A stretch of DNA of 64,000 nt from an uncultured Erythrobacter sp. GTDB taxonomy: Bacteria > Pseudomonadota > Alphaproteobacteria > Sphingomonadales > Sphingomonadaceae. The stretch's first letter is position 1; each line of letters starts with the position of its first letter. This document shows positions 6,268 through 37,300 of this stretch, in pieces. The DNA is taken from positions 1,582,818 to 1,646,817 of the forward strand of contig CANNBH010000001.1 of assembly GCA_947502815.1 (NCBI GenBank), written 5' to 3'. The notes beneath the pieces are model-generated. The model ran no database searches and was not told the DNA's origin. It saw only the letters and a program-made list of their open reading frames with translations. Made by a program: the position numbers and the translations under genes.

Positions 6268-7944
6268 GTGAAAAAGAACTATAAACCTGAAGATGAATTG
6301 CTGTTCCTCGCATTGGGAGGGTCAGGCGAAATTGGCATGAACGTCAATCTTTATGGCTGTGACGGCAAATGGATGATGGTCGATCTGGGCATGACCTTTT
6401 CCGGCGGCGAATATCCCGGCGTTGACCTGGTTTTTGCCGACCTTGAGTTTATCGAGGATCGCACAAAGGATCTGCTGGGTATTGTTCTAACTCACGCGCA
6501 TGAGGATCACATCGGTGCGGTGCCATACTTCGCCGGAGAGCTCGGCGTTCCGCTCTATGCCACGCCGTTTACTGCGGATTTGGTCGCGCGAAAGCTCGAA
6601 GAAGCTGGGCTGCTTGGCAAGGTAGAGCTCAACATTATTGAGGAAGACCACGGACAAATCCATCTGGGACCGTTTTCCGTAACCTATCTGCCACTGGCGC
6701 ATTCGATTGCAGAGGGTAACGCGCTGCTGATTGAAACGCCTTATGGCCGTGTCTTCCACACTGGTGATTGGAAACTCGACGAGGACCCAATTATCGGAGA
6801 ACCCACCACCGAAGAAGAACTGCGATCCATTGGCGATGACGGTGTGCTTGCGCTGGTTTGCGATTCTACCAATGTGTTCAATCCCAACCCGTCAGGGTCT
6901 GAGGGGGCCGTACACAAGGGATTGATGGAGGAGGTCGCGCGGCACACGGGCAAACGGGTGCTTGTCACCACATTTGCCAGCAATGTGGCCCGGTTGCAGA
7001 CGTTGGGCGAAGTAGCGCGCGAGACTGGGCGCCAATTGTGCGTTGCGGGCCGTTCGCTCGACCGGATTATCGAAGTGGCGCAGGACAATGGCTATCTTGA
7101 AGATTTTCCAACACCAGTGGATTTCAACACCGCAATGGGGCTGCCGTGCGGTGAAGTGATGATCATCGCCACCGGCGGGCAGGGGGAGCCGCGCGCTGCC
7201 CTTTCGCGGATCGCCGATGAAAACCATCAACTGAAATTGGTGAGCGGCGATGTCGTTTTGTTTTCGTCCCGTCAGATACCGGGCAATGAAATCTCAATCG
7301 GTAAGATGCAGAACCAGCTTTCCCGGCGCGGGATTGAGATGGTGACCGACCGACAGAGCCTGATCCACGTTTCTGGCCACCCAGGGCGCCCTGAATTGGA
7401 AGCCCTGTACAGCTGGTTAAAGCCTGAAATACTGGTCCCGGTGCATGGCGAAATGCGGCATATGCGGGAACAAGCGCGGCTCGGCAAAGAATGCCAGATA
7501 CCTTCCAATGTCGTGCAGTCGAACGGTGATATCGTGCGGCTTGCACCCGGTGATCCGGGCAAGATTGCGGAAGTGCGGCATGGCCGCTTTGTGTTGGATG
7601 GAGACATCATCGCGCCAGCCGACGGGGAATCCATTGCGATGCGCCGGCGAATGGCGGGCGAGGGCGTGATCGTTGTCGTTCTGGCGCGCGGGGAAAAGCC
7701 CGCTTTGGAAGTGCTCGGCCTGCCTTTGGATGAAGATATGCCGGAGTTTATTCAGGAAGCGCAGGACGACATCCTCAAAGCCATTGGGAAATTGAAAGGG
7801 CATCAGGCCAACGATCCCGCTGCTGTGCATGAGGCCGCGCGTTTGGCCGCTCGCCGTGCTGCGCGCCGCTGGGCCGGCAAGAGCCCTCAGGTTCGCGTTG
7901 TCATGCCGGGGCAGGGGAACGCACAGAGTAACGAGGCGTCATAA
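6268..7944 (+). CDS. rnj: Ribonuclease J (metallo-beta-lactamase/beta-CASP)
   Basis: LGGSGEIGMN, THAHEDHIG, HTGDWK, HVSGH motifs; GTG start. Confidence 0.95.
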   Translation: MKKNYKPEDELLFLALGGSGEIGMNVNLYGCDGKWMMVDLGMTFSGGEYPGVDLVFADLEFIEDRTKDLLGIVLTHAHEDHIGAVPYFAGELGVPLYATPFTADLVARKLEEAGLLGKVELNIIEEDHGQIHLGPFSVTYLPLAHSIAEGNALLIETPYGRVFHTGDWKLDEDPIIGEPTTEEELRSIGDDGVLALVCDSTNVFNPNPSGSEGAVHKGLMEEVARHTGKRVLVTTFASNVARLQTLGEVARETGRQLCVAGRSLDRIIEVAQDNGYLEDFPTPVDFNTAMGLPCGEVMIIATGGQGEPRAALSRIADENHQLKLVSGDVVLFSSRQIPGNEISIGKMQNQLSRRGIEMVTDRQSLIHVSGHPGRPELEALYSWLKPEILVPVHGEMRHMREQARLGKECQIPSNVVQSNGDIVRLAPGDPGKIAEVRHGRFVLDGDIIAPADGESIAMRRRMAGEGVIVVVLARGEKPALEVLGLPLDEDMPEFIQEAQDDILKAIGKLKGHQANDPAAVHEAARLAARRAARRWAGKSPQVRVVMPGQGNAQSNEAS

Positions 7945-7946
7945 CC

Positions 7947-8237
7947 ATGCAGATCACGTCGATCCTTGCGGTGTATTTCCTATTTTGGGTGATGACCGCA
8001 TTTGTCATGCTGCCCTTTGGTGTCCGAACGGCGGATGAAGCCGGGGTTGCAAAGGTGCCCGGTCAAGCAGACAGCGCGCCGGTCAACTTTCAGCCTAAGA
8101 AAATTCTGGTCCGTGCTACGCTGATCGCGACGGTGCTGACGACGTTGTTCGTGCTCAATTTTGAATATGGCTGGGTTGGTGTCGATGACATCAATTTCTT
8201 TCCAGAACGACCAACTATCGCCGAACAAGTGAACTAG
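7947..8237 (+). CDS. Small membrane protein, DUF1467-like
   Basis: Two hydrophobic segments and a LPFGVRT...VPGQADSAP motif, in the usual position after rnj in alphaproteobacteria. Confidence 0.7.
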   Translation: MQITSILAVYFLFWVMTAFVMLPFGVRTADEAGVAKVPGQADSAPVNFQPKKILVRATLIATVLTTLFVLNFEYGWVGVDDINFFPERPTIAEQVN

Positions 8238-8273: not shown

Positions 8274-10853
8274 TTACTGGCGGAACCGTTCAATCGATTG
8301 GGCCAGGATGACGTAGAGCTTACCCATGTCCGATCCTAAGATCGTTACGCCCAAGGCATTGCCATCGCGGGTGGAAAGCATGGATCGCAGCATTGCTTCG
8401 AAATCGTGGATGTAACGGCTGACATTGGATTTGAACGTCTCGTCGCTCTGATACAACTCAGCGATTTCCTTTGCCTCTCCAGTATCAAGCAGGCGGACCG
8501 CACGTCTGGTAAAGATGCCGCGATCACCCTTTAGATAGGCATCCCATGCCGTGTCTGTCACATCGGTTGAAATCGCCGCAGCAAGGTCGATGGCGTTTGA
8601 ATTGAGGCTGTCGGTGATCAGCGCCATGCGCCGGGCAAAATCGTTGCCGACTGTTTCTTCAGACAATTCGCGCGCACGGGCGATGCGCTGTTCCAGATTG
8701 AGTGTGAGTTCGTTGACCTTGGACAGTTGGTCGCGCAATTGCACGGTCGCTTCGCGCCCGACCCCGGATGCATGCGCCGCTGCTTGTTCCAATTTCCCGA
8801 CTGTTTCCGCCGTTTCGGTGCGCAGAGATCGCTCCAATTCTGCGACGGCATCTTTGGACATCGTAGCCGCCAAAACGCCAACCTTTTCACGCGTTCCGTC
8901 TTCCAAGGCATTGAACGCGCTCGTTGTTGCCTCTTCGAGTGCTCCCAATGCCTCACGCAGTTTATCTTGGGTTTCACCGGCAAAGGTGCCGCTTTGCTCG
9001 GTCAATTGCGTAAAGCCGCCGCGCAGGCCTTGCAGTTTGGCGAGGGTGTCTTCCGATTGTTCGGAAAGGCGTGTTTGGAGGGCATGGATCGATGTGTCGG
9101 CTTCTTCGATCTTGCTTTGCGTGTCGATCAAATAGGTGCCCAGCTCTTCGGCCTTGCCAGACGTCGCAAACATCATACCGGACAATGCGGCCGCGCGCTG
9201 TTCAACCGAACCGAGCGCATGTGCGGCCCCGCCAATGGCTTCGGGTAAGTCTTCGCGGCTGTGTTTGGCGCCCGATTGAATGATCTCCAGCAAACGGACG
9301 CCGGCTTCGGTAAGGGCTCCGAGCTGTTTCTCCGTCTCGCCCAAAGCCTCGCGTTTCGCCGCTAGTTTTTCGCCCAAAGCATCCATGCTGGTTTCCAGCC
9401 CCTGCTGTGCGGTTTCGCCTTGGGCGCTGATTTCTGCGATTAGATCGGTGAGCTTCTCAAGCTGCGCACTCATTTCAGTTGAATGCGCCACCAGTTTCTC
9501 GGTCTCACGCGATTGCGCATCACGCCGTTCGGCAATTGCATCGTCAAGGTCTGACAGACGCTGCGCCAACACTTCGCTCGCTTGCGCTTCTCGCGTTGCG
9601 AATTCTTCTTGGCGTTGGTTGACGTCTTCTTGGAATTTCCGATCGCGAGCGGCCAGCGCTTGTTCGACGCGTTCTGCCTCCGCTTGCAATTCTTGAATGC
9701 GCGTTTGGGAGGAGCTGATGGCGTCTTGGTCCAATTTGTCGACCATTTCGGCGGCGGTTACTATGTCAGCTTCGAAGCGTTCCCGCGTTGCGTTCAATTG
9801 ATCGACCGCGCCAGCCTCTGTCTCGCACAGCTTAGTTGAGATGGCCTTGGCTTCTGTTTGCAGCATCAGCATCCGCTCATTCAAAGCTGTCAGTGCCTGC
9901 GTTTCGGCTTCCTCCACCTCACCGCGATATTCGCTCGTTTGGGTCTTTACGACGTCAAGGCGCGATCCAACCACTTCTTCGATCCGCGACAATTGGGCCT
10001 CTAGGCCGCCCATTGTTTCACCGACACGGCTTTCAAAAGCTGTCACTTGAGTTTCGCTGGCTTTGCCAAACTGGTTGAGCCGTTCAAACCCGGTCACCAT
10101 TTTATCAAGCTGATCCTGCGCAGTCCGTCCGGCGTTCCCAACTTGGTTGGAAACATCGCGCGCCGAATTGGCAACAACCGGCAGATCATCCCGCAGCCGG
10201 GTCATATTGCCCAGCGCGGTCTCGCTTGCGCTGCCAATTGCGTCAACCTGATCGCCATTGGTCTTAATCAGGGTTTGCAATTCGCCTGCGTGTTGGGAAA
10301 TTCGCTCACTCGCAACCCGGCCGAGCGATTCCAGTTCGAGCGATTGAGCAGCCAAAAATTCGCGCGCGAGGCTCAATTCACGATTGACCACGGTTAGGCG
10401 TGTTTCAAGCTCGCTGCTCTCTCGGGACAGCAAAGCAGCGGTTTCGGCAAAGCGCCTCGCTTCGGCCCGTGAATGGCGCATCGTGAGCAGCCAACCAACT
10501 CCGACAAGCAAGACTGGAACCGACCAATCAATGATCCAGCGGGTCCATTGTGCCGGTTCTGCAGCCGCCGCATTCAGAAACTGGTCCTGCATCGCCCAGC
10601 CATAAAGAGCCGTCCAACCCATGATCAGGGTTATCGCAAGAGCAGGGGCAATCCAGCCAAATCTCTGCTCGGACACATCATAAGTGTCTTCGGTGTCAAA
10701 GTCTGAAAGATCCAATTCATCTTCCATTTCAACAGCATCTGCCAAAGACTGCGCCTCTTCACCGGGTGCGATTTCACCCTCAGCATGCGTGCTAGATTGC
10801 GCTTTTTGCGCGGCGTCTGGGCCCACGGCCCTGATATGTTGTCCACCCGACAT
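8274..10853 (-). CDS. Large coiled-coil membrane protein (two N-terminal TM helices), TipN/GPR-like polar landmark candidate
   Basis: 859 aa from ATG at 10853 (MSGGQHIRAV). Acidic N-terminus, two TM segments, about 650 aa of A/E/L/Q-rich heptads, and a C-terminal FKSNVSRYIHDFEAML...SDMGKLYVILA motif. Confidence 0.6.
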   Translation of the reverse strand: MSGGQHIRAVGPDAAQKAQSSTHAEGEIAPGEEAQSLADAVEMEDELDLSDFDTEDTYDVSEQRFGWIAPALAITLIMGWTALYGWAMQDQFLNAAAAEPAQWTRWIIDWSVPVLLVGVGWLLTMRHSRAEARRFAETAALLSRESSELETRLTVVNRELSLAREFLAAQSLELESLGRVASERISQHAGELQTLIKTNGDQVDAIGSASETALGNMTRLRDDLPVVANSARDVSNQVGNAGRTAQDQLDKMVTGFERLNQFGKASETQVTAFESRVGETMGGLEAQLSRIEEVVGSRLDVVKTQTSEYRGEVEEAETQALTALNERMLMLQTEAKAISTKLCETEAGAVDQLNATRERFEADIVTAAEMVDKLDQDAISSSQTRIQELQAEAERVEQALAARDRKFQEDVNQRQEEFATREAQASEVLAQRLSDLDDAIAERRDAQSRETEKLVAHSTEMSAQLEKLTDLIAEISAQGETAQQGLETSMDALGEKLAAKREALGETEKQLGALTEAGVRLLEIIQSGAKHSREDLPEAIGGAAHALGSVEQRAAALSGMMFATSGKAEELGTYLIDTQSKIEEADTSIHALQTRLSEQSEDTLAKLQGLRGGFTQLTEQSGTFAGETQDKLREALGALEEATTSAFNALEDGTREKVGVLAATMSKDAVAELERSLRTETAETVGKLEQAAAHASGVGREATVQLRDQLSKVNELTLNLEQRIARARELSEETVGNDFARRMALITDSLNSNAIDLAAAISTDVTDTAWDAYLKGDRGIFTRRAVRLLDTGEAKEIAELYQSDETFKSNVSRYIHDFEAMLRSMLSTRDGNALGVTILGSDMGKLYVILAQSIERFRQ

Positions 10854-10883
10854 GCTCGCTAGATACCACAGCTTGCGTGTGGA

Positions 10884-10899
10884 TAAACCCCGCATTAAC
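10884..10899. promoter_or_regulatory. CtrA-like box TAAA-N7-TTAAC in the divergent promoter region
   Basis: taaa ccccgca ttaac, compared with the CtrA consensus TTAA-N7-TTAAC; overlaps the inverted repeat ccgcatt-N7-aatgcgg (10890-10910). Confidence 0.45.
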
Positions 10900-10923
10900 T
10901 CTCAATGCGGTATTGCCCTTCAA

Positions 10924-11247
10924 ATGGCTTATGAAAGCGGAGACCTTGATGCGACCCTCGCGGCTGCTGCTGGAGACGATCCAGCGCTGCTGGGAGAGCT
11001 GCGCGGTGCCTTTGTCGAAAGCGCTGAAAAGCAGCTGGATTTGCTCAAGCGTTCGCGCTGCGACGGCAATTGGACCGTAGCGGCCATGCGGTTAAAGGGG
11101 CTGGCAGCCAGCTTTCATGCCGAGGAATTGTTGCTCGCAGCAGAAAACGCGCTGGAGGCGGCACCGGGTGAACCGGCCGCCATTCGCAACATTGAACACG
11201 TTTTGGCGCGTTTTTCGGGTAAGGTTTCCTCGCCGTTTGGCGTCTAA
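10924..11247 (+). CDS. Stand-alone Hpt-like domain protein lacking the phospho-accepting His
   Basis: 107-aa helical protein MAYESGDLDATL...; AAMRLKGLAASF aligns with the Hpt motif aHxLKGss, with Met55 in place of His. Confidence 0.7.
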   Translation: MAYESGDLDATLAAAAGDDPALLGELRGAFVESAEKQLDLLKRSRCDGNWTVAAMRLKGLAASFHAEELLLAAENALEAAPGEPAAIRNIEHVLARFSGKVSSPFGV

Positions 11248-11326
11248 ACCTCCCTCACATCGTAAAAATTTCATGGGGTTTGCTGTCGCTTGGTGCTTGA
11301 TGCGGGGCATAAGGCAGGCGTAGCGC

Positions 11327-12592
11327 ATGCAAAGCGCGGTCCGTTTTGGCCGCCTTTTGCTGATGGAATGTCAATTGCGCACCGCTCTGATCGCTGCAAT
11401 CAAACGCACAGACAGCGGAGCTTTGCGCGCGGAGATGATGCTTGCCGGGCGCAGCGTCGCTGGATGGCAAGTGGATCTCGCGCACGCCCTTTTGTGCGAA
11501 CGGGTTATCTGCCTATGCGAAGGGCCAAACGACACGCTCACCACCCTTCAACGCGAGGTCGAGGAGCGCGGGGGCGAATTTCACGCGATACGAAGCAATT
11601 TGCAATTGGTCAGTCTGGTCCGGGCCGATGACGAGTTGATAATGATGGCCGATGGGGTGTTGGCCGATCGCGATGCGGTGATGCAATTCGCTGCTGGAAC
11701 CAATGGCGATGCCAAAAGCGCGTTGCATAGGGGAATTGCGGTTCTCCCGGCCGGCCATTCCCTTGCCGCCAGTCACCCAGAGGATTTTGAGCGGATTGCC
11801 GGCGACAGCCATTGGGCTGGGTTTGCCGTCATAAGGGCAGGGCAGGTGCACAAACTGGCCGATTTACCGCCTGACGGCGATGCAATGTCCTTGCTTCTCC
11901 GTTTGGCCCTTCAAGCAAGCGTGGAATGCCGTCAACTAGCGGATGGATCGGCCGATAGCGGCGACGGGACGGCCCGCTGGATGATCGCACACAGTGGTTC
12001 GGCCATTGCGGAGCGTGAAGCGGCGTTGCTCGATAGCAGTGTTTCGGAGCCGTCATGGACTGGCCCCGGCCTTGCCATTGCCGCAATTGCAACCCGCGCA
12101 ATCGCGCCGCGTTGGATTGAAAAAGGGCCGGAAATCAGCGCTCTGTCTGCGGTATTTCTTACGCTTTCAGGGGTGGGGCTCACCGGCTATGGATTGCCCT
12201 TGGTTGGCCTGTCGCTCGCCGCATTCGGAGCCTTTGGAGGTGCAATGAGCGCGGAGTGGAGCGCATTGCGATCCCGGCTCTGGTCGCAAGACACCAGCGC
12301 ACGGCGCGCTACAATGTTGACCATCGCACTCGATTGCAGCGCCGCAATTGTACTGATTTTGGCGTTGGGAGTTCCGATCAGCTTGGTTGCGAATGCTGCT
12401 CTGCCGATTTTGGCCATTGGGCTCGCCCATCTGGCCGGACGCGATGACCGTGCATCGGTCAACGCGTTTTGGCGGGATCGCGGCCTCCATCTGATCGGTT
12501 TCGCGATTGCCAGCGGGGCTGGGTATTTGAATGAGGCACTGTCCATCTTTGCCATCGCTGCTCTTTTGCAATTGCTGCTGCGCCGCAAATAA
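11327..12592 (+). CDS. Hypothetical membrane protein: N-terminal nucleotidyltransferase-like region plus C-terminal TM bundle
   Basis: Long ORF with host-like coding pattern. The N-terminus (LAGRSVAGWQ...ERVICL...DDELIMMADG) resembles the GT-A/NTP-transferase fold; there are 5-6 C-terminal hydrophobic helices. Exact start uncertain. Confidence 0.55.
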   Translation: MQSAVRFGRLLLMECQLRTALIAAIKRTDSGALRAEMMLAGRSVAGWQVDLAHALLCERVICLCEGPNDTLTTLQREVEERGGEFHAIRSNLQLVSLVRADDELIMMADGVLADRDAVMQFAAGTNGDAKSALHRGIAVLPAGHSLAASHPEDFERIAGDSHWAGFAVIRAGQVHKLADLPPDGDAMSLLLRLALQASVECRQLADGSADSGDGTARWMIAHSGSAIAEREAALLDSSVSEPSWTGPGLAIAAIATRAIAPRWIEKGPEISALSAVFLTLSGVGLTGYGLPLVGLSLAAFGAFGGAMSAEWSALRSRLWSQDTSARRATMLTIALDCSAAIVLILALGVPISLVANAALPILAIGLAHLAGRDDRASVNAFWRDRGLHLIGFAIASGAGYLNEALSIFAIAALLQLLLRRK

Positions 12593-12635
12593 CTCTGCGG
12601 ACCGCTAAGCGCTTCAATATTCAAAGGGCATTGCG

Positions 12636-12654
12636 CTAACGGGGGCTTAACCAT
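12636..12654 (+). promoter_or_regulatory. CtrA-like box CTAA-N7-TTAACCAT
   Basis: ctaa cgggggc ttaaccat, 21 nt before the ATG at 12676; includes the TTAACCAT CtrA motif. Confidence 0.6.
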
Positions 12655-12675
12655 AGCCCGTGTAAAGGCTACGAA

Positions 12676-13656
12676 ATGGGCGACATGTCTATAGACCGGA
12701 CCGACACCACCTCTGTCGAGGCTATCCTGCGGGATGAACTCGCGCGCGGAAATCGCGCGTTGAGCGGAGTTGCGCCTGTCATTTCCCATATGCTCGCCAG
12801 CTCTGGTCATGCATTGGTAAGCGACGCGATTGTCGCGCGTTTGCGCGGAATGTTGATGGATCTGGCCTGCCAATTGATTGCCGCGTCGATGAGCAAGGCC
12901 GATGGGCAAACTGGCGACATCGACGAAGCCGTAATCGATCAAGTTGCCGATCATCTTGCAGGCGATAGCGACGTTCTGGGACACCTCTACGCTCTCGCCA
13001 TGGAAGGGCATTTGACCGAGCGATTGGAGCAGCGATCTTCGGTCGATCCGGTGCTCAGCCCCCTTTTGCAGGAATTGATCGCGTCGGATCAGGCCGCTAT
13101 TGCGGAATTGGCCATGACCACGCTCGCGGCGCAATCGCGCTTTACCCAAAGCCAAAGGCGAATGGAATTGCCGCTGGGTGAATTGCCTTCGGATCTGTTC
13201 GTTGCGGTTGTTAAACGGTTTAAGAAAGCCGCGCATGCCGACGATCGTGATCGCGTTTCTCAGGCGATGAAGGACCTGAAAAACCAATATGATGAAGGCA
13301 CGGGACGTCTGGGTTTGCTGGCCCGGCTTGTGTCTTCGATGCGCGGAGGTGCGGTGGCTGCGCTGGAGCTTGATCACGCGGGCCTTGCGCTCTTTGTCAG
13401 CGGAATTTCGGCATTGACGCGGCAACCGCGCGACCTTGCGGTGCTTGCGTGTCACGAACGCCAAGCAGCGCGGCTCGCGCTGAGTTTAAGAGCTGGCGGT
13501 CTAAACCCCGAAGCGATTGAGCGACAATTCCTGCTGATTGAGCCCAGCGAAATGCTGCCCAGCGGTATTGCGGCGATGTCGCCAGAGCGCGCGCGCGATT
13601 TGCTGGGCGGTTCGGCGCTGCCATATGCCAACGGCTTTGGCCTTGGTGCCGGGTGA
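12676..13656 (+). CDS. Hypothetical all-alpha protein, DUF2336-like
   Basis: 326-aa soluble helical protein. Size and the C-terminal LAVLAC...ARLALSLRAGGL pattern recall DUF2336 proteins; the family call is by eye only. Confidence 0.45.
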   Translation: MGDMSIDRTDTTSVEAILRDELARGNRALSGVAPVISHMLASSGHALVSDAIVARLRGMLMDLACQLIAASMSKADGQTGDIDEAVIDQVADHLAGDSDVLGHLYALAMEGHLTERLEQRSSVDPVLSPLLQELIASDQAAIAELAMTTLAAQSRFTQSQRRMELPLGELPSDLFVAVVKRFKKAAHADDRDRVSQAMKDLKNQYDEGTGRLGLLARLVSSMRGGAVAALELDHAGLALFVSGISALTRQPRDLAVLACHERQAARLALSLRAGGLNPEAIERQFLLIEPSEMLPSGIAAMSPERARDLLGGSALPYANGFGLGAG

Positions 13657-13666
13657 GGGGCGCAGG

Positions 13667-15070
13667 ATGAACCGGCAACAATCCCTTCTCGCCGCGCGCG
13701 GGGTCACCGATCAAAGGGACCGGTTGCTGACCGCGGACGATCCCTTGGCGGAGCTGCATGAAAGCTGCGGCGGATCGCTGCCCGGCACATTGGCGGTGCC
13801 AGAGTTGCTCGACCTTGTCAGGCAAAGCCGCGAGATGGGCCTGCGTATCGCGCGCGAATTCACGGCGTTTGACGGTTCAGAAATGGTGAGCGGGTTTGTG
13901 CGTATTCATCCTCTTTCGGATGAAAATGGCGGCGGCTGCGAAGTGCTGGTTGAAAATTGGCAGCGCGCGCCGCAGCCAGAGATGAGCACCCATGATTTGG
14001 CCGACCGAATTGATGCGATCGACCGTGCTGCTGCTGAAGTCACTGCACGGCTTGATCCGCGCCAACAGGTTCAGTTTTTGACGTCCAGCGCAGTGGATGT
14101 TGGCGCGTTGCAGGATGCAATTGCCTCAAGCCCGCGCAAAGTTTGGACCGACTATGTAACGCTCAAAGGCGTTGCCCACCATCAACCGCTTCATTGGCGT
14201 TTGCTCGACGGAGCATATTGCACATTCGAAGGGTCAGCCCGGCATTGGCGGGTGCGGATCATCCCGCTTGGCCCGATCAGCGGCGCACCGCGCGGATTTG
14301 AACTCTTGATGGTCGCGGATGAGCCGCCTGGCGCGGCCGCGGATACGACCGAGATTGAGACACAAAGCGCGCAGTCACAATTGATCGGGAGCGCCCTCAC
14401 ACCCGTTTTGCGGCAACCCATTGCGCGCATCATCGCCAATGCAGAAACGATCCGCACCCGATTGGCCGGGCCGCTGCGCGAAGAATACAGCGATTATGCC
14501 GGCAACATCGCCGCCGCAGGTCAGCATTTGTCGGGCATGCTCGATGATCTTGCTGACTTGGAAGTGGTCGAGGCTCCGGGCTTTTCGGCGGCAAAGGAAA
14601 AGGTCGATTTGGTTGATGCCGCCGCGCGGGCTGCGGGGATATTGGGCGTGCGCGCGCAAGATCGGCGAATTACTCTGACCCATGTAAAGGGCGATGGACC
14701 AATTGTGGCGATGGCGGAGTTTCGCCGGGTGCTGCAAATTCTCATCAATCTCATTGGCAATGCGATTGCCTATTCCCCGGAAGGCAGCACAGTCACAATC
14801 GCTGTCGATAACGCAGGCGAGGGATCGATTGCGCTGAGCGTGGTCGACGAGGGGCCCGGCGTTACGGCGGATCAAGCGACACGAATATTTGAGAAGTTTG
14901 AGCGCCTTGGCAGGGATCAAGACGGCGGGAATGACAGCGGATCTGGTCTTGGTCTGTACATCTCGCGCCGCCTTGCGTTGGCAATGGATGGTGATCTCAT
15001 CGTCATGAAGCCAGAAGCGGATGCGCCGCTGAAAGGCGCTGAATTCCGGCTAACACTGCCGCGCGCCTGA
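13667..15070 (+). CDS. PleC/DivJ-family histidine kinase-like protein lacking the H-box His (pseudokinase)
   Basis: ATG at 13667, 10 nt after the upstream stop. DHp segment TPVLRQPIARIIANAE...GPLREEYSDYAGNIAAAGQHL; intact HATPase N (INLIGNAIAYS), G1 (DEGPG), F (IFEKF) and G2 (GSGLGL) boxes; PAS-like N-terminal region. Confidence 0.8.
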   Translation: MNRQQSLLAARGVTDQRDRLLTADDPLAELHESCGGSLPGTLAVPELLDLVRQSREMGLRIAREFTAFDGSEMVSGFVRIHPLSDENGGGCEVLVENWQRAPQPEMSTHDLADRIDAIDRAAAEVTARLDPRQQVQFLTSSAVDVGALQDAIASSPRKVWTDYVTLKGVAHHQPLHWRLLDGAYCTFEGSARHWRVRIIPLGPISGAPRGFELLMVADEPPGAAADTTEIETQSAQSQLIGSALTPVLRQPIARIIANAETIRTRLAGPLREEYSDYAGNIAAAGQHLSGMLDDLADLEVVEAPGFSAAKEKVDLVDAAARAAGILGVRAQDRRITLTHVKGDGPIVAMAEFRRVLQILINLIGNAIAYSPEGSTVTIAVDNAGEGSIALSVVDEGPGVTADQATRIFEKFERLGRDQDGGNDSGSGLGLYISRRLALAMDGDLIVMKPEADAPLKGAEFRLTLPRA

Positions 15071-15111
15071 ACTAAGCCTCAGTCGCTGGCTGCAAATTTG
15101 TTCTCTATACC

Positions 15112-15148
15112 AAAAGAGCGACCCCAAGGTTGTCCTTAGGATCGCTCT
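15112..15148 (-). terminator. Intrinsic terminator downstream of gltA
   Basis: Minus-strand hairpin agagcgatcctaagg-acaa-ccttggggtcgctct followed by a short U-tract, between convergent genes. Confidence 0.7.
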
Positions 15149-15178
15149 GAAGATGTGTTTCGCCCTGAGGCGCGGCAA

Positions 15179-16465
15179 TTAACGGTTGGCGACGGGCACG
15201 TAATCGCGCTGTGTCGGGCCAGTATAGAGCTGACGTGGACGACCGATAACCTGGCCTGGATCGGAGATCATTTCGTTCCATTGCGCAACCCAGCCCACGG
15301 TGCGGGCGAGGGCGAAGAGCGCGGTGAACATCGTGGTCGGGAAACCGATCGACGACAGGATAATGCCGGAATAGAAGTCCACGTTCGGGAACAGTTTCTT
15401 TTCCTTGAAGTAATCATCGTTGAGCGCGAGCTCTTCAAGCCGCAGTGCGGTTTCGAACACGGGATCATCAACTTTCAACGCTTCAAACACTTCTTTGAGC
15501 GTTTGCTGCATCACGGTCGCGCGCGGATCGTAGTTTTTGTAAACGCGGTGGCCAAAGCCCATCAGACGGAACGGGTCGTTCTTGTCCTTCGCGCGTTCGA
15601 TGTAATGCGGGATTTTGTCTGGCGAGCCGATTTCCTGCAACATGTTGAGAGCAGCTTCGTTTGCGCCGCCGTGTGCGGGGCCCCACAAACAGGCAATACC
15701 TGCTGCGATACACGCAAACGGGTTCGCGCCCGATGAACCGGCGAGACGCACGGTCGATGTCGATGCGTTCTGTTCGTGGTCAGCATGCAAGATGAAGATA
15801 CGGTCCATCGCCTTTTCAATGGCGGGATGCACTTCATATTCTTCGGCCGGAACACCAAACGTCATCCGCAGGAAGTTACCCGTGTAGCTCAGCGAGTTAT
15901 CCGGCTGCATCATGGGCTGACCAATGGAGTATTTATACGCCATCGCAGCAATCGTTGGCATTTTTGCGATCAAGCGGTGCGAACTGATCTTGCGGTGCTC
16001 TGGATCAGAAATATCGGTGCTGTCATGGTAAAACGCCGACAAAGCGCCAACCACGCCGCACATGATTGCCATAGGGTGCGCGTCGCGGCGGAAACCCTGA
16101 TAAAACTGGCGCAATTGATCGTGCAGCATCGTGTGCCGCGTGATCGTGTGGTTAAAGTCAGACAGTTCATCACTGCTGGGCAATTCGCCGTTCAGCAAGA
16201 GGTAGGACGTTTCCATAAAGCTGGAATGTTCCGCCAGCTGGCCGATTGGATACCCGCGATGCAGCAAGATGCCTTCGTTGCCGTCGATATAGGTCAGCGC
16301 GCTTTCGCAGCTGGCCGTTGACTTATAGCCCGGGTCAAATGTGAATTTGCCGGTTGCGCCGTACAGCTTACGAATATCGACCACGTCAGGGCCGGTGCTG
16401 CCTTCAAGAACGGGAAACTCGTGTGTTTGTCCGTCAATTTCGAGCTTGGCTTGCTTGTCTGCCAA
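15179..16465 (-). CDS. gltA: Citrate synthase (type II)
   Basis: [46 protein letters not shown] motifs. Confidence 0.98.
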
Positions 16466-16504
16466 AATGTGTCTCCTGCCCAGTTATGCTTCTGGCGTCC
16501 GTCT

Positions 16505-17920
16505 TTACGCAGCTTGCGCGTTGAGCCGTGCCAGGGATTCTTCCCGTCCCAAAAGGACCAGAACATCGAAAATTCCCGGTGACGTTGTCGTTCCGGTGAG
16601 CGCAGCGCGCATTGGCTGTGCCAGCTTGCTGAAACCCAATTCAAGGTCCTCCGCAAGCGCTTTGGTAGTGGCTTCGAGAGCGTCAATTGTCCAGTTATTT
16701 TCCGCCTTAAGTGCCTCTGAAATGGCGTTAAGGCGTGATCGGCCATCATCATCGAGGAATTTGGCTGCCTTTTCCGTCATAGACATTGGCTGCGTCGCAA
16801 ACAAAAAGCCTGCACCATCAGCAAGTTCATCAAGATTCTTCGCACGCGTTTTTAGCACAGGCATTGCTCGGCTAAGCAGATCAATATCCGGTGACCCGTC
16901 CATACGTGCTGCTACGAGAGGCGCGAGCACGGCGTCATCCGTTTCGCGAATATAATGCCCGTTGAAGTTTTCGAGCTTTTTGAGGTCGAACCGAGACGGG
17001 CTTTTGCCCACTCCTGAAAGGTCGAACAATTCGATCGCTTCGCTGCGCGTGATTTCTTCGCGGTCGCCGTGCCCCCAACCCAGACGCAGCAGGTAGTTGA
17101 AAAGCGCATCGGACAAAATGCCCATATCATCCCGGTACGCCTCCACTCCCAGCGCGCCGTGCCGCTTAGACAATTTCGCGCCGTCCGAACCGTGGATCAA
17201 CGGGATGTGGGCATAGGTCGGCTCAGGCCACCCGCCTTCGCTTGCCTCCATCGCGTGATAGATCGGCAATTGGCGAAAGGCGTTGTTCAAATGATCATCG
17301 CCGCGCACGACATGCGTGACGCCCATATCGTGATCATCCACCACCGCCGCGAGCATATAGGTTGGCGTGCCGTCGGCGCGCAGAATAATATAGTCGTCAA
17401 GTTCAGCATTCTTGACCGATACCGAGCCTTGGACTTCATCTTGAATGGTCACTTCGCCATCCAGCGGTGTCTTAATCCGCACAGTGTAGGCTGCGCCAGC
17501 GGGTGCTTCGGATGGGTCTCGATCCCGCCAGCGGCTATCATAGCGCATGGGCTGTTTGTTGGCGCGCTGTTCGGCGCGCATCGTTTCCAGCTCTTCGGCG
17601 GTCGCAAAACACTTGTAAGCATGGCCGCCTGCAAGCAAAGCATTCGCAACTTCGGCGTGCCGATCCGCGCGCTGAGATTGAAAAGTGGGCGCTTCGTCAT
17701 AGTCCAGACCGAGCCAATCCAGCCCGTCTAGGATCGCATCTATCGCCTCTTGCGTTGAACGCTGTTTGTCGGTGTCTTCGATGCGCAAAAGCGCTTTTCC
17801 GCCATGATGACGGGCGTAGAGCCAGTTGAATAAGGCCGTGCGCGCGCCGCCAATATGCAGAAAACCGGTGGGCGATGGCGCAAACCGGGTAACAATGGGT
17901 TGTGCAGCTGGGCTTGCCAT
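16505..17920 (-). CDS. gltX: Glutamate-tRNA ligase
   Basis: [14 protein letters not shown] (HIGH) and KLSKR (KMSKS) motifs. Confidence 0.97.
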
Positions 17921-37281: not shown

Positions 37282-37300
37282 ATGGTTAACAAGATGCTAA
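37282..37300. promoter_or_regulatory. CtrA-like box (minus strand TTAG-N7-TTAACCAT)
   Basis: Plus strand atggttaa caagatg ctaa. Confidence 0.5.

Follow-up and report, generated by a model that had tools for sequence, protein, structure and literature searches.

What can a bacterial gene cluster do when its histidine kinase-like protein and its histidine phosphotransfer (HPt)-like protein both lack the phosphorylatable histidine? The question is raised by five adjacent genes, here p1 to p5, that fill positions 8274-15070 of a 64,000-nucleotide stretch of DNA from an uncultured Erythrobacter sp. (assembly GCA_947502815.1, contig CANNBH010000001.1, positions 1,582,818 to 1,646,817), which we call the window. 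They are flanked by rnj-DUF1467 (6268-8237) and gltA-gltX (15179-17920). An earlier note, made from the sequence alone, had described five adjacent genes of unknown function here as a CtrA-linked, phosphotransfer-dead cluster; all five are present, with their starts refined. The descriptive part of our answer is solid: this is a module found across the order Sphingomonadales whose kinase, HPt protein and lipid-enzyme homolog have lost canonical catalysis while their folds were kept. We read it as an uncharacterized, probably CtrA-regulated pseudo-two-component module, a variant on the themes of DivL and of plant AHP6. The genes are as follows.

p1: 8274..10853, minus strand; membrane-anchored coiled-coil protein, 859 amino acids (aa)
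p2: 10924..11247, plus strand; pseudo-HPt protein, 107 aa, with Met55 at the phospho-His position
p3: 11363..12592, plus strand; nucleoside triphosphate (NTP)-transferase-like and CDP-alcohol-phosphatidyltransferase-related membrane protein, with its start taken from the family alignment
p4: 12676..13656, plus strand; divergent DUF2336 protein, 326 aa
p5: 13667..15070, plus strand; cytoplasmic PAS-PAS-DHp-CA pseudo-histidine kinase, 467 aa

The kinase-like protein p5 scores 79 bits on the Pfam model HATPase_c, and HisKA is matched only from profile position 13, that is, past the His. In alignment, its LTPVLRQPI pairs with ISHELRTPL of HK853, so that Pro246 stands in place of the His, confirming the His-to-Pro change read by the earlier note, and Val247 in place of the catalytic Glu. 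Set against a canonical HisKA kinase, p5 has the CA domain and lacks the phospho-His, its acidic neighbor and a nearby response regulator. For comparison across species, a scan with one genome per species gave 80 loci, all of them in Sphingomonadales (Erythrobacter, Qipengyuania, Altererythrobacter, Novosphingobium, Sphingobium, Sphingopyxis, Sphingomonas, Sphingorhabdus, Blastomonas, Sphingosinicella and Parasphingopyxis), and one locus fetched earlier (L001) brought the set to 81. Among 82 p5 orthologs from across the order, the His position is occupied by Pro (50), Arg (7), Gly (7), Gln (6), Ser (3), Asn (2), Leu (2), Thr (2), Lys (2) or Ala (1), and never by His. The closest homologs come from Erythrobacter and Qipengyuania; among the 120 close matches listed (the same number was listed for p2), 115 have Pro and 2 have Asn, with 3 unread by the pattern. 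None of about 140 family representatives, clustered at 50% identity, has His, and SHELRTP appears in that list only in unrelated hybrid kinases of about 880 aa. The acidic residue next to the former His is lost in the family as well, being Val or Ala.

The remainder of p5 is that of a soluble sensor protein. Hydropathy gave no transmembrane (TM) segment, and the first 238 residues are modeled as two PAS domains with a predicted local distance difference test (pLDDT) score of 91.8. Foldseek matched this PAS model to DosP, FixL, MmoS, PpsR and Brucella LOV-PAS at probability 1.0 and E-values down to 1e-6, and a profile of the N-terminal region had no significant match among PDB sequences. The N-terminal half of the Sphingopyxis kinases has diverged beyond detection by tblastn. 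Distant family members that carry NCBI names all belong to Sphingomonadales and are annotated 'sensor histidine kinase' or 'ATP-binding protein'. The likeness to PleC and DivJ that had been proposed for p5 reduces to generic HisKA similarity: the DivJ model gives 85 bits against a cut-off of 1000, and DivJ/PleC orthology was rejected on that score. DivL (PDB 4q20) ranks 15th at E = 2e-10, with generic kinases matching better, and p5 does not qualify as a DivL ortholog, its residue at the site being Pro or variable and never Tyr in the 82 sequences.

At the other end of the presumed relay, p2, whose sequence is otherwise typical of HPt proteins, carries the motif MRLKGLAAS at the HPt HxxKG site, with Met55 in place of the His. 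The HPt assignment of the earlier note, including its His-to-Met change, was borne out by structure: the AlphaFold model (pLDDT 85, predicted TM-score 0.75) had HPt proteins as all of its top 12 Foldseek matches, among them YojN-HPt, ShpA (2ooc), a rice AHP and HptB of P. aeruginosa (TM-score 0.68). Probabilities were 0.84-1.0, mostly at least 0.9, and the E-values (0.2-1) are modest, as one expects of a short helical bundle. By sequence, p2 matched nothing in Pfam, NCBIfam or the PDB and does not reach the Pfam gathering score for PF01627, which two p2 homologs touch at E = 0.05-0.07; NCBI labels the homologs 'Hpt domain-containing protein'. The 120 close homologs listed have Met (101), Leu (9) or His (1) at the phospho-His site, with 9 unmatched by the pattern. 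The single His variant (P0220, AAHRLKG) lies on a short Logan contig and could be a one-step change from Leu or a sequencing error. In 55 orthologs from across the order the site is Met, Trp, Leu, Ala, Glu, Ser, Gln, Thr or Phe, never His, with RLKGLAASF retained. The protein is as well conserved as core proteins of the region; in locus L002, p2 is 87% identical, RNase J 86% and GltX 84%.

Both ends of the relay are therefore His-less in one locus, as had been proposed, with His in 0/82 kinases and 0/55 HPt proteins. The His-less state of both proteins appears ancestral and universal in the family. Retention of His by orthologs had been named as grounds for abandoning the idea; the orthologs do not retain it, and that objection falls away. 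A split CheA-like system, in which a CA domain phosphorylates a separate HPt protein, was rejected because no HPt ortholog has kept its His.

The nucleotide pocket of p5 has had a different history. Eleven residues (Q357, N361, N365, D394, G396, G398, F408, R413, G427, G429 and L430), which make up the N, G1, F and G2 boxes, are invariant in 82/82 sequences. These boxes stay fixed although the old His site has changed freely; selection therefore acts on ATP binding or catalysis in p5, and the protein is not simply dead. The pocket is under strong purifying selection, whereas the canonical acceptor is gone and its position unconstrained. The description 'phosphotransfer-dead' is thus limited to the canonical His relay, for which it stands.

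The invariant pocket also gives rise to the main rival explanation, in which p5, catalytically active as a kinase or ATPase of non-canonical type, would phosphorylate something other than the H-box His, with phosphate passed off the His-Asp route, and would resemble the histidine kinase-like Ser kinases SpoIIAB/RsbW or BCKDH kinase. Candidate acceptors are His287 in DHp helix 2 (codon 14525-14527) or a hydroxyl residue (Ser, Thr or Tyr) in another protein of the cluster, for instance p2 (where Ser33 and Ser63 are conserved) or p4. Besides the contrast between the fixed pocket and a His position that has passed through 10 residue types, this explanation is favored by the presence of H287 in 78/82 family members, by matches of some homologs to PF13581 (the SpoIIAB-like HATPase family) and by the conservation of p2 Ser33 (at least 95%). 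However, the general-base Glu/Asp beside the His has gone too, and the cluster encodes no Ser/Thr-kinase partner fold such as STAS. H287 could be structural or an alternative acceptor; HK853 carries a His at the aligned position, and helix geometry suggests that H287 probably lies well above the canonical site. We consider an active p5 of this kind somewhat unlikely.

The cluster holds a further enzyme homolog. Although p3 itself has no match in Pfam or NCBIfam, three orthologs weakly match MobA-like NTP_transf_3 (PF12804, E = 4e-4 to 0.06), and a 50-sequence p3 profile searched against the PDB found as its best match, over the TM domain, IPCT/DIPPS (4mnd, E = 2e-4). Next came 5d92, an AF2299/phosphatidylinositol-synthase chimera (E = 5e-3), and, at the N-terminus, sugar-1-phosphate nucleotidylyltransferases (E about 0.03). 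Support for homology of the p3 TM domain to CDP-alcohol transferases is, at the level of such profile matches, weak but specific. The p3 consensus, read by eye from alignments, has neither the GxGxR nucleotide loop nor the DxxDGxxAR...GxxxDxxxD motif, so the 'degenerate nucleotidyltransferase-like domain' of the earlier note was the right call. The sole invariant residues (Q37, E144, R145, R181 and Q185) lie in the cytoplasmic domain, in FERID and LLRxALQ motifs, and the TM domain has none; the membrane domain looks like a second dead enzyme remnant.

The remaining membrane protein, p1, has the two TM helices expected of it, at residues 79-97 and 121-139 of the 873-aa open reading frame by hydropathy. 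They follow a short acidic N-terminus and precede a long helical region. It is divergent from p2 as had been said, and its coiled-coil matches are sub-threshold: against Pfam and NCBIfam, only Apolipoprotein (PF01442) and SMC were touched. Across 58 orthologs, conservation is seen in the juxtamembrane region and in a C-terminal domain (about 160 aa) that matches no Pfam family, with a variable middle between them.

These two proteins suggest another explanation, in which the module organizes a membrane or envelope lipid domain or a growth zone, p2, p4 and p5 are sensors or adaptors, and CtrA merely times expression. The architecture of p1 with its sub-threshold PF01442 match has a precedent in GPR, essential for polar growth (PMC8262873), and p3 is homologous to IPCT/DIPPS and phosphatidylinositol-synthase-type proteins. 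Against this, p3 is without the DxxDGxxAR...D motif and its TM part without invariant residues, p1 matches GPR and TipN in architecture only, and some lineages with p3-p5 do without p1 and p2. An organizer of lipids is, in our judgment, quite unlikely.

Like p3, the window p4 has no Pfam or NCBIfam match. Its positional orthologs in Sphingomonas, Sphingosinicella, Sphingorhabdus, Parasphingopyxis and Sphingobium match DUF2336 (PF10098) at 25.7-99.9 bits, three of them above the 34.6-bit cut-off, and an Erythrobacter/Novosphingobium-type p4 profile aligns to these orthologs in hhalign with Prob 98.6 and E = 1e-15, the hidden Markov models matching reciprocally. Through this transitive homology p4 is best taken as a divergent DUF2336 protein, in agreement with the earlier note.

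The genes are also co-conserved. The order rnj-DUF1467, p1 on the minus strand, p2-p3-p4-p5, gltA-gltX is kept in Erythrobacter, Novosphingobium, Sphingobium, Sphingomonas, Sphingorhabdus, Blastomonas and Sphingosinicella, and all five genes were detected in 45 of the 65 loci with enough upstream sequence, which answers the call for a synteny check. Among the same 65 loci, p2 never occurs without p1. Because base composition does not differ between the five genes and the remainder of the window and core genes lie on both flanks, a mobile island was rejected. Neither p1 nor p2 was detected in L052, L055, L063-L066 and L068 (Sphingopyxis) or in L075, L076, L078 and L080 (Sphingomonas), where the kinase is retained and usually p3 or a DUF2336-type gene too; L078 has too little upstream sequence for the absence to be certain.

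Two CtrA-type boxes may tie the genes to a common regulator.

Box 1, TAAACCCCGCATTAAC: 10884..10899, no strand assigned; CtrA-type direct repeat in the divergent p1/p2 intergenic region
Box 2, CTAACGGGGGCTTAACCAT: 12636..12654, no strand assigned; CtrA-type box with a TTAACCAT half-site, 40 nucleotides (nt) upstream of the p4 ATG

The box at 10884 (TAAACCCCGCATTAA) and that at 12636 (CTAACGGGGGCTTAA) are each one mismatch from TTAA-N7-TTAA, and the TTAACCAT of box 2 is a classical half-site. In the window alone such motifs are not above chance: with at most one mismatch, 4 were observed and 6.7 expected. The other two, at 37286-37300 (in the gap downstream of two convergent open reading frames) and at 16707-16721 (inside gltX), look like chance matches. 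What supports the two boxes, which the earlier note had pointed out, is phylogenetic footprinting across the 81 loci. The 1.47 Mb of locus DNA contain 143 motif matches, and about 100 of these occupy the two promoter positions, a recurrence that, judged on motif counts, is far beyond chance. The box 1 family, TAAAC-N6-TTAAC, precedes the p2 ATG by 38-40 nt in 36-37 of 55 loci; the Sphingomonas-type loci shown have GAAAC-N6-TTAAC. The box 2 family, [C/A]TAAC-N6-TTAACCA, lies upstream of p4 in 44 of 47 loci, mostly by 38-42 nt; most Sphingomonas-type DUF2336 genes shown have TTA[G/A]-N7-TTAAC upstream, and in three loci without a detected DUF2336 gene a box stands 93-136 nt upstream of the kinase itself. 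Across loci the half-sites are retained and the spacers vary. A Sphingopyxis box, TTTAG-N6-ATTAA, was seen about 1.7 kb upstream of the kinase.

About 12 nt downstream of each window box is a TAT-containing -10-like element, followed by an ATG within about 10 nt; this spacing points to class II activation and to leaderless or near-leaderless mRNAs, with the boxes probably placed over the -35 regions of the p1/p2 and p4 promoters. Box 1 lies upstream of both the p2 and the p1 ATG, its center about 33 nt from the former and about 37 nt from the latter, and since the p1/p2 intergenic region is just 70 bp, one box would serve both divergent genes. The factor bound is likely to be CtrA, given the motif and the order's retention of CckA-ChpT-CtrA, CpdR and RcdA (PMC2877005, PMC8116508). 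A second motif at 10860-10872, adjoining the p1 start about 30 nt to the left of box 1, reads (A)TACCAC in the window and has as its counterpart in Sphingomonas-type loci GTTTACCAT (L056, L061, L069, L071, L073, L074, L077 and L081); it resembles both a p1 -10 region and the CtrA/SciP half-site TTAACCAT.

A skeptical account of the same facts is that p1 to p5 are conserved neighbors without a shared function, and that the motif is either part of ordinary promoters (their -35/UP region) or bound by some unrelated regulator. Core synteny is high here in any case, with rnj, DUF1467, gltA and gltX all staying in place, the motif is unenriched in the window alone, and the left half-site deviates from TTAA. 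Yet throughout the order one and the same 11-bp-spaced repeat, with variable spacers, recurs at two promoters and equally far from the ATG, and the box goes with the kinase where DUF2336 is absent. Moreover, within one locus the same chemistry is gone from two proteins of a single pathway type, and p2 is never without p1. We therefore regard mere neighborhood as very unlikely.

We read the genes as forming three transcription units, one of p1, one of p2 that probably includes p3, and one of p4-p5. Two hairpins bear on this scheme.

Hairpin with T-run: 11336..11353, plus strand; from the consensus scan, between p2 and the probable p3 start
Hairpin with 15-bp stem: 15115..15148, no strand assigned; from the consensus scan, in the convergent p5/gltA gap, with its T-run on the minus strand

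The first may be a partial terminator or attenuator, and because it lies just upstream of p3, p2 may be partly insulated from p3. The second is a predicted terminator on the gltA strand, and its position suggests that it may also end the p4-p5 transcript. The total of terminator-like sites found in the region by the consensus scan is not above shuffle expectation. Among public sequencing runs, a search turned up DNA and metagenome data only. Regarding gene starts, p1 begins at the second ATG (10853), matching the 859-aa gene call in the orthologous locus L001, the probable start of p3 is the ATG at 11363, as placed by the family alignment, and p5 starts at the ATG at 13667, 10 nt past the p4 stop, the upstream TTG not being used. 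In L020 (Qipengyuania sp. MTN3-11, 9990-10010) the p4 stop and p5 start overlap (TGATG), which fits translational coupling. A 785-aa DUF2336-kinase fusion in the same locus was rejected as merely an open alternative reading frame.

Farther out, L001 has a comEC-like gene (DUF4131 and Competence domains) and lexA after gltX, at 14406-17427; the window equivalent lies beyond 17920. Both competence genes and LexA have connections to CtrA and to gene-transfer-agent biology in Rhodobacter. Near the comEC-like gene and lexA of L001, no CtrA-type box was noticed.

How might such a module work? The reading that we favor, tentatively and at somewhat less than even confidence, is that of a vertically inherited core-genome module that acts by binding on the CckA-ChpT-CtrA/CpdR relay. 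Phosphorylated CtrA (CtrA~P) would switch the module on through the two boxes, and the proteins would assemble at the inner membrane through the p1 and p3 anchors, with complexes forming among p1-p5 and the relay target. p5 retains a DHp domain with an LRxP kink, PAS inputs and the nucleotide pocket, and p2 its receiver-docking helix with the xxKG motif. In this scheme p5, gated by nucleotide and by its PAS domains, and p2 would bind receiver or DHp domains of the relay stoichiometrically, as DivL and AHP6 do. The outcome would be feedback on CtrA activity, closing a loop through the CtrA-type boxes.

A substitute regulator of CckA-ChpT-CtrA is attractive because DivJ-PleC-DivK is reported lost or degenerate in Sphingomonadales, DivK being largely absent (PMC2877005). 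For the same reason DivK, which had been put forward as a partner, is an unlikely one. In its most specific form, the proposal would make the cluster the Sphingomonadales replacement of the DivJ-PleC-DivK/DivL layer, with a CtrA-induced pseudo-kinase, gated by ATP and PAS, and what would be the first bacterial pseudo-HPt protein clamping receivers while p1 and p3 hold the complex at a defined membrane site; we consider this version unlikely.

Several observations weigh against a CtrA-directed binding module. The genes p1 and p2 are jointly missing in 9 of the 65 loci with enough flank, mainly in Sphingopyxis and in some Sphingomonas, so the five genes are not an obligate unit. No gene for a receiver-domain protein (response regulator), CckA or ChpT lies within 10 kb on either side in L001. 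The left half-site is off the strict CtrA consensus (TAAA or GAAA at p2; CTAA, ATAA or TTAG at p4), and a different OmpR-type regulator might bind the box instead. As a sequence pattern, an ATP pocket and an H287 so strictly conserved would suit an active enzyme better than a passive scaffold. Many Erythrobacteraceae are non-motile. In S. melonis CtrA is dispensable, as cited in PMC7200025.

Each part of the cluster falls in a known superfamily, and the pseudokinase principle is established. To our knowledge, few bacterial pseudokinase examples (such as DivL) of two-component signaling without phosphotransfer are known. The searchable literature yielded no account of this cluster, of the p5 pseudo-kinase family or of any bacterial pseudo-HPt family, and among the full-text matches listed for pseudo-HPt there were plant studies only. 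What sets the locus apart is that a kinase and an HPt protein, both without the His, adjoin a doubly inactivated lipid-enzyme homolog, and that this arrangement is tied to conserved CtrA-type boxes and has been maintained through the entire history of Sphingomonadales. If the module does feed back on CckA-ChpT-CtrA, it would explain how CtrA is regulated without DivK in this order and would make species such as Sphingomonas melonis or a Novosphingobium tractable models of how dead signaling proteins are reused. The conserved pocket further raises the question of what ATP does in a kinase without an acceptor His.

Compared with known systems, p1, p4 and p5 resemble polarity or cell-cycle factors by architecture or family (GPR/TipN, DUF2336 and DivL, respectively), and purely by analogy the cluster proteins might be located at the pole. 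GPR, the growth pole ring protein of Agrobacterium, combines a pair of TM helices at its N-terminus with apolipoprotein-like helices and is essential for polar growth (PMC8262873). p1 is like GPR and TipN in having two N-terminal TM helices and an otherwise cytoplasmic, alpha-helical bulk, a likeness of architecture alone: GPR has 2115 aa and significant PF01442 matches, whereas p1 has 859 aa and sub-threshold ones. With IPCT/DIPPS (Archaeoglobus AF0263, PDB 4mnd) and AF2299-type proteins, p3 shares the succession of a cytoplasmic nucleotidyltransferase-like domain and a multi-pass transferase domain; unlike them, it lacks both the G-x-G-x-R loop and DxxDGxxAR...GxxxDxxxD, and its conservation is centered on FERID and LLRxALQ.

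According to the earlier note, SpbR of Caulobacter is a DUF2336 protein. SpbR and p4 are both of an alphaproteobacteria-specific type and of similar size, p4 being a very divergent DUF2336 protein. SpbR (CC2323) has 377 aa (PMC1182365) and p4-type proteins have 326-378 aa; a 2005 BLAST survey listed no Novosphingobium homolog for CC2323 (PMC1182365). SpbR is a substrate of RcdA/ClpXP and influences both the development of the pole and centromere translocation (bioRxiv 10.1101/2020.06.12.148478).

For p2 the closest bacterial comparison is ShpA, the HPt protein of the Caulobacter ShkA-ShpA-TacA relay, a stand-alone protein of about 110 aa like p2 and among its best structural matches in Foldseek (22-23% identity, TM-score 0.54-0.59). 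ShpA has an active His and transfers phosphate, whereas the p2 family has other residues there. The plant pseudo-HPt proteins (Arabidopsis AHP6 and rice PHPs) share with p2 a retained HPt fold with the phospho-His substituted, and are thought to act by competing in the phosphorelay. They are eukaryotic and of unrelated origin, while p2 shares its locus with a His-less kinase.

The last comparison is between p5 and DivL of Caulobacter crescentus (PMC7200025). DivL has Tyr at the site with the rest of the H-box kept and is membrane-anchored, longer and widespread in Alphaproteobacteria. Its ligand is DivK, largely absent from Sphingomonadales (PMC2877005). Unlike DivL, p5 has Pro or a variable residue there and no acidic residue next to it. 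It is a soluble protein whose ATP pocket is strictly conserved, has two PAS domains and belongs to a family found only in Sphingomonadales. The two have in common the histidine kinase fold, the replaced phospho-His, N-terminal PAS domains and an alphaproteobacterial CtrA-pathway context, and p5, like DivL, would be expected to act by protein contacts.

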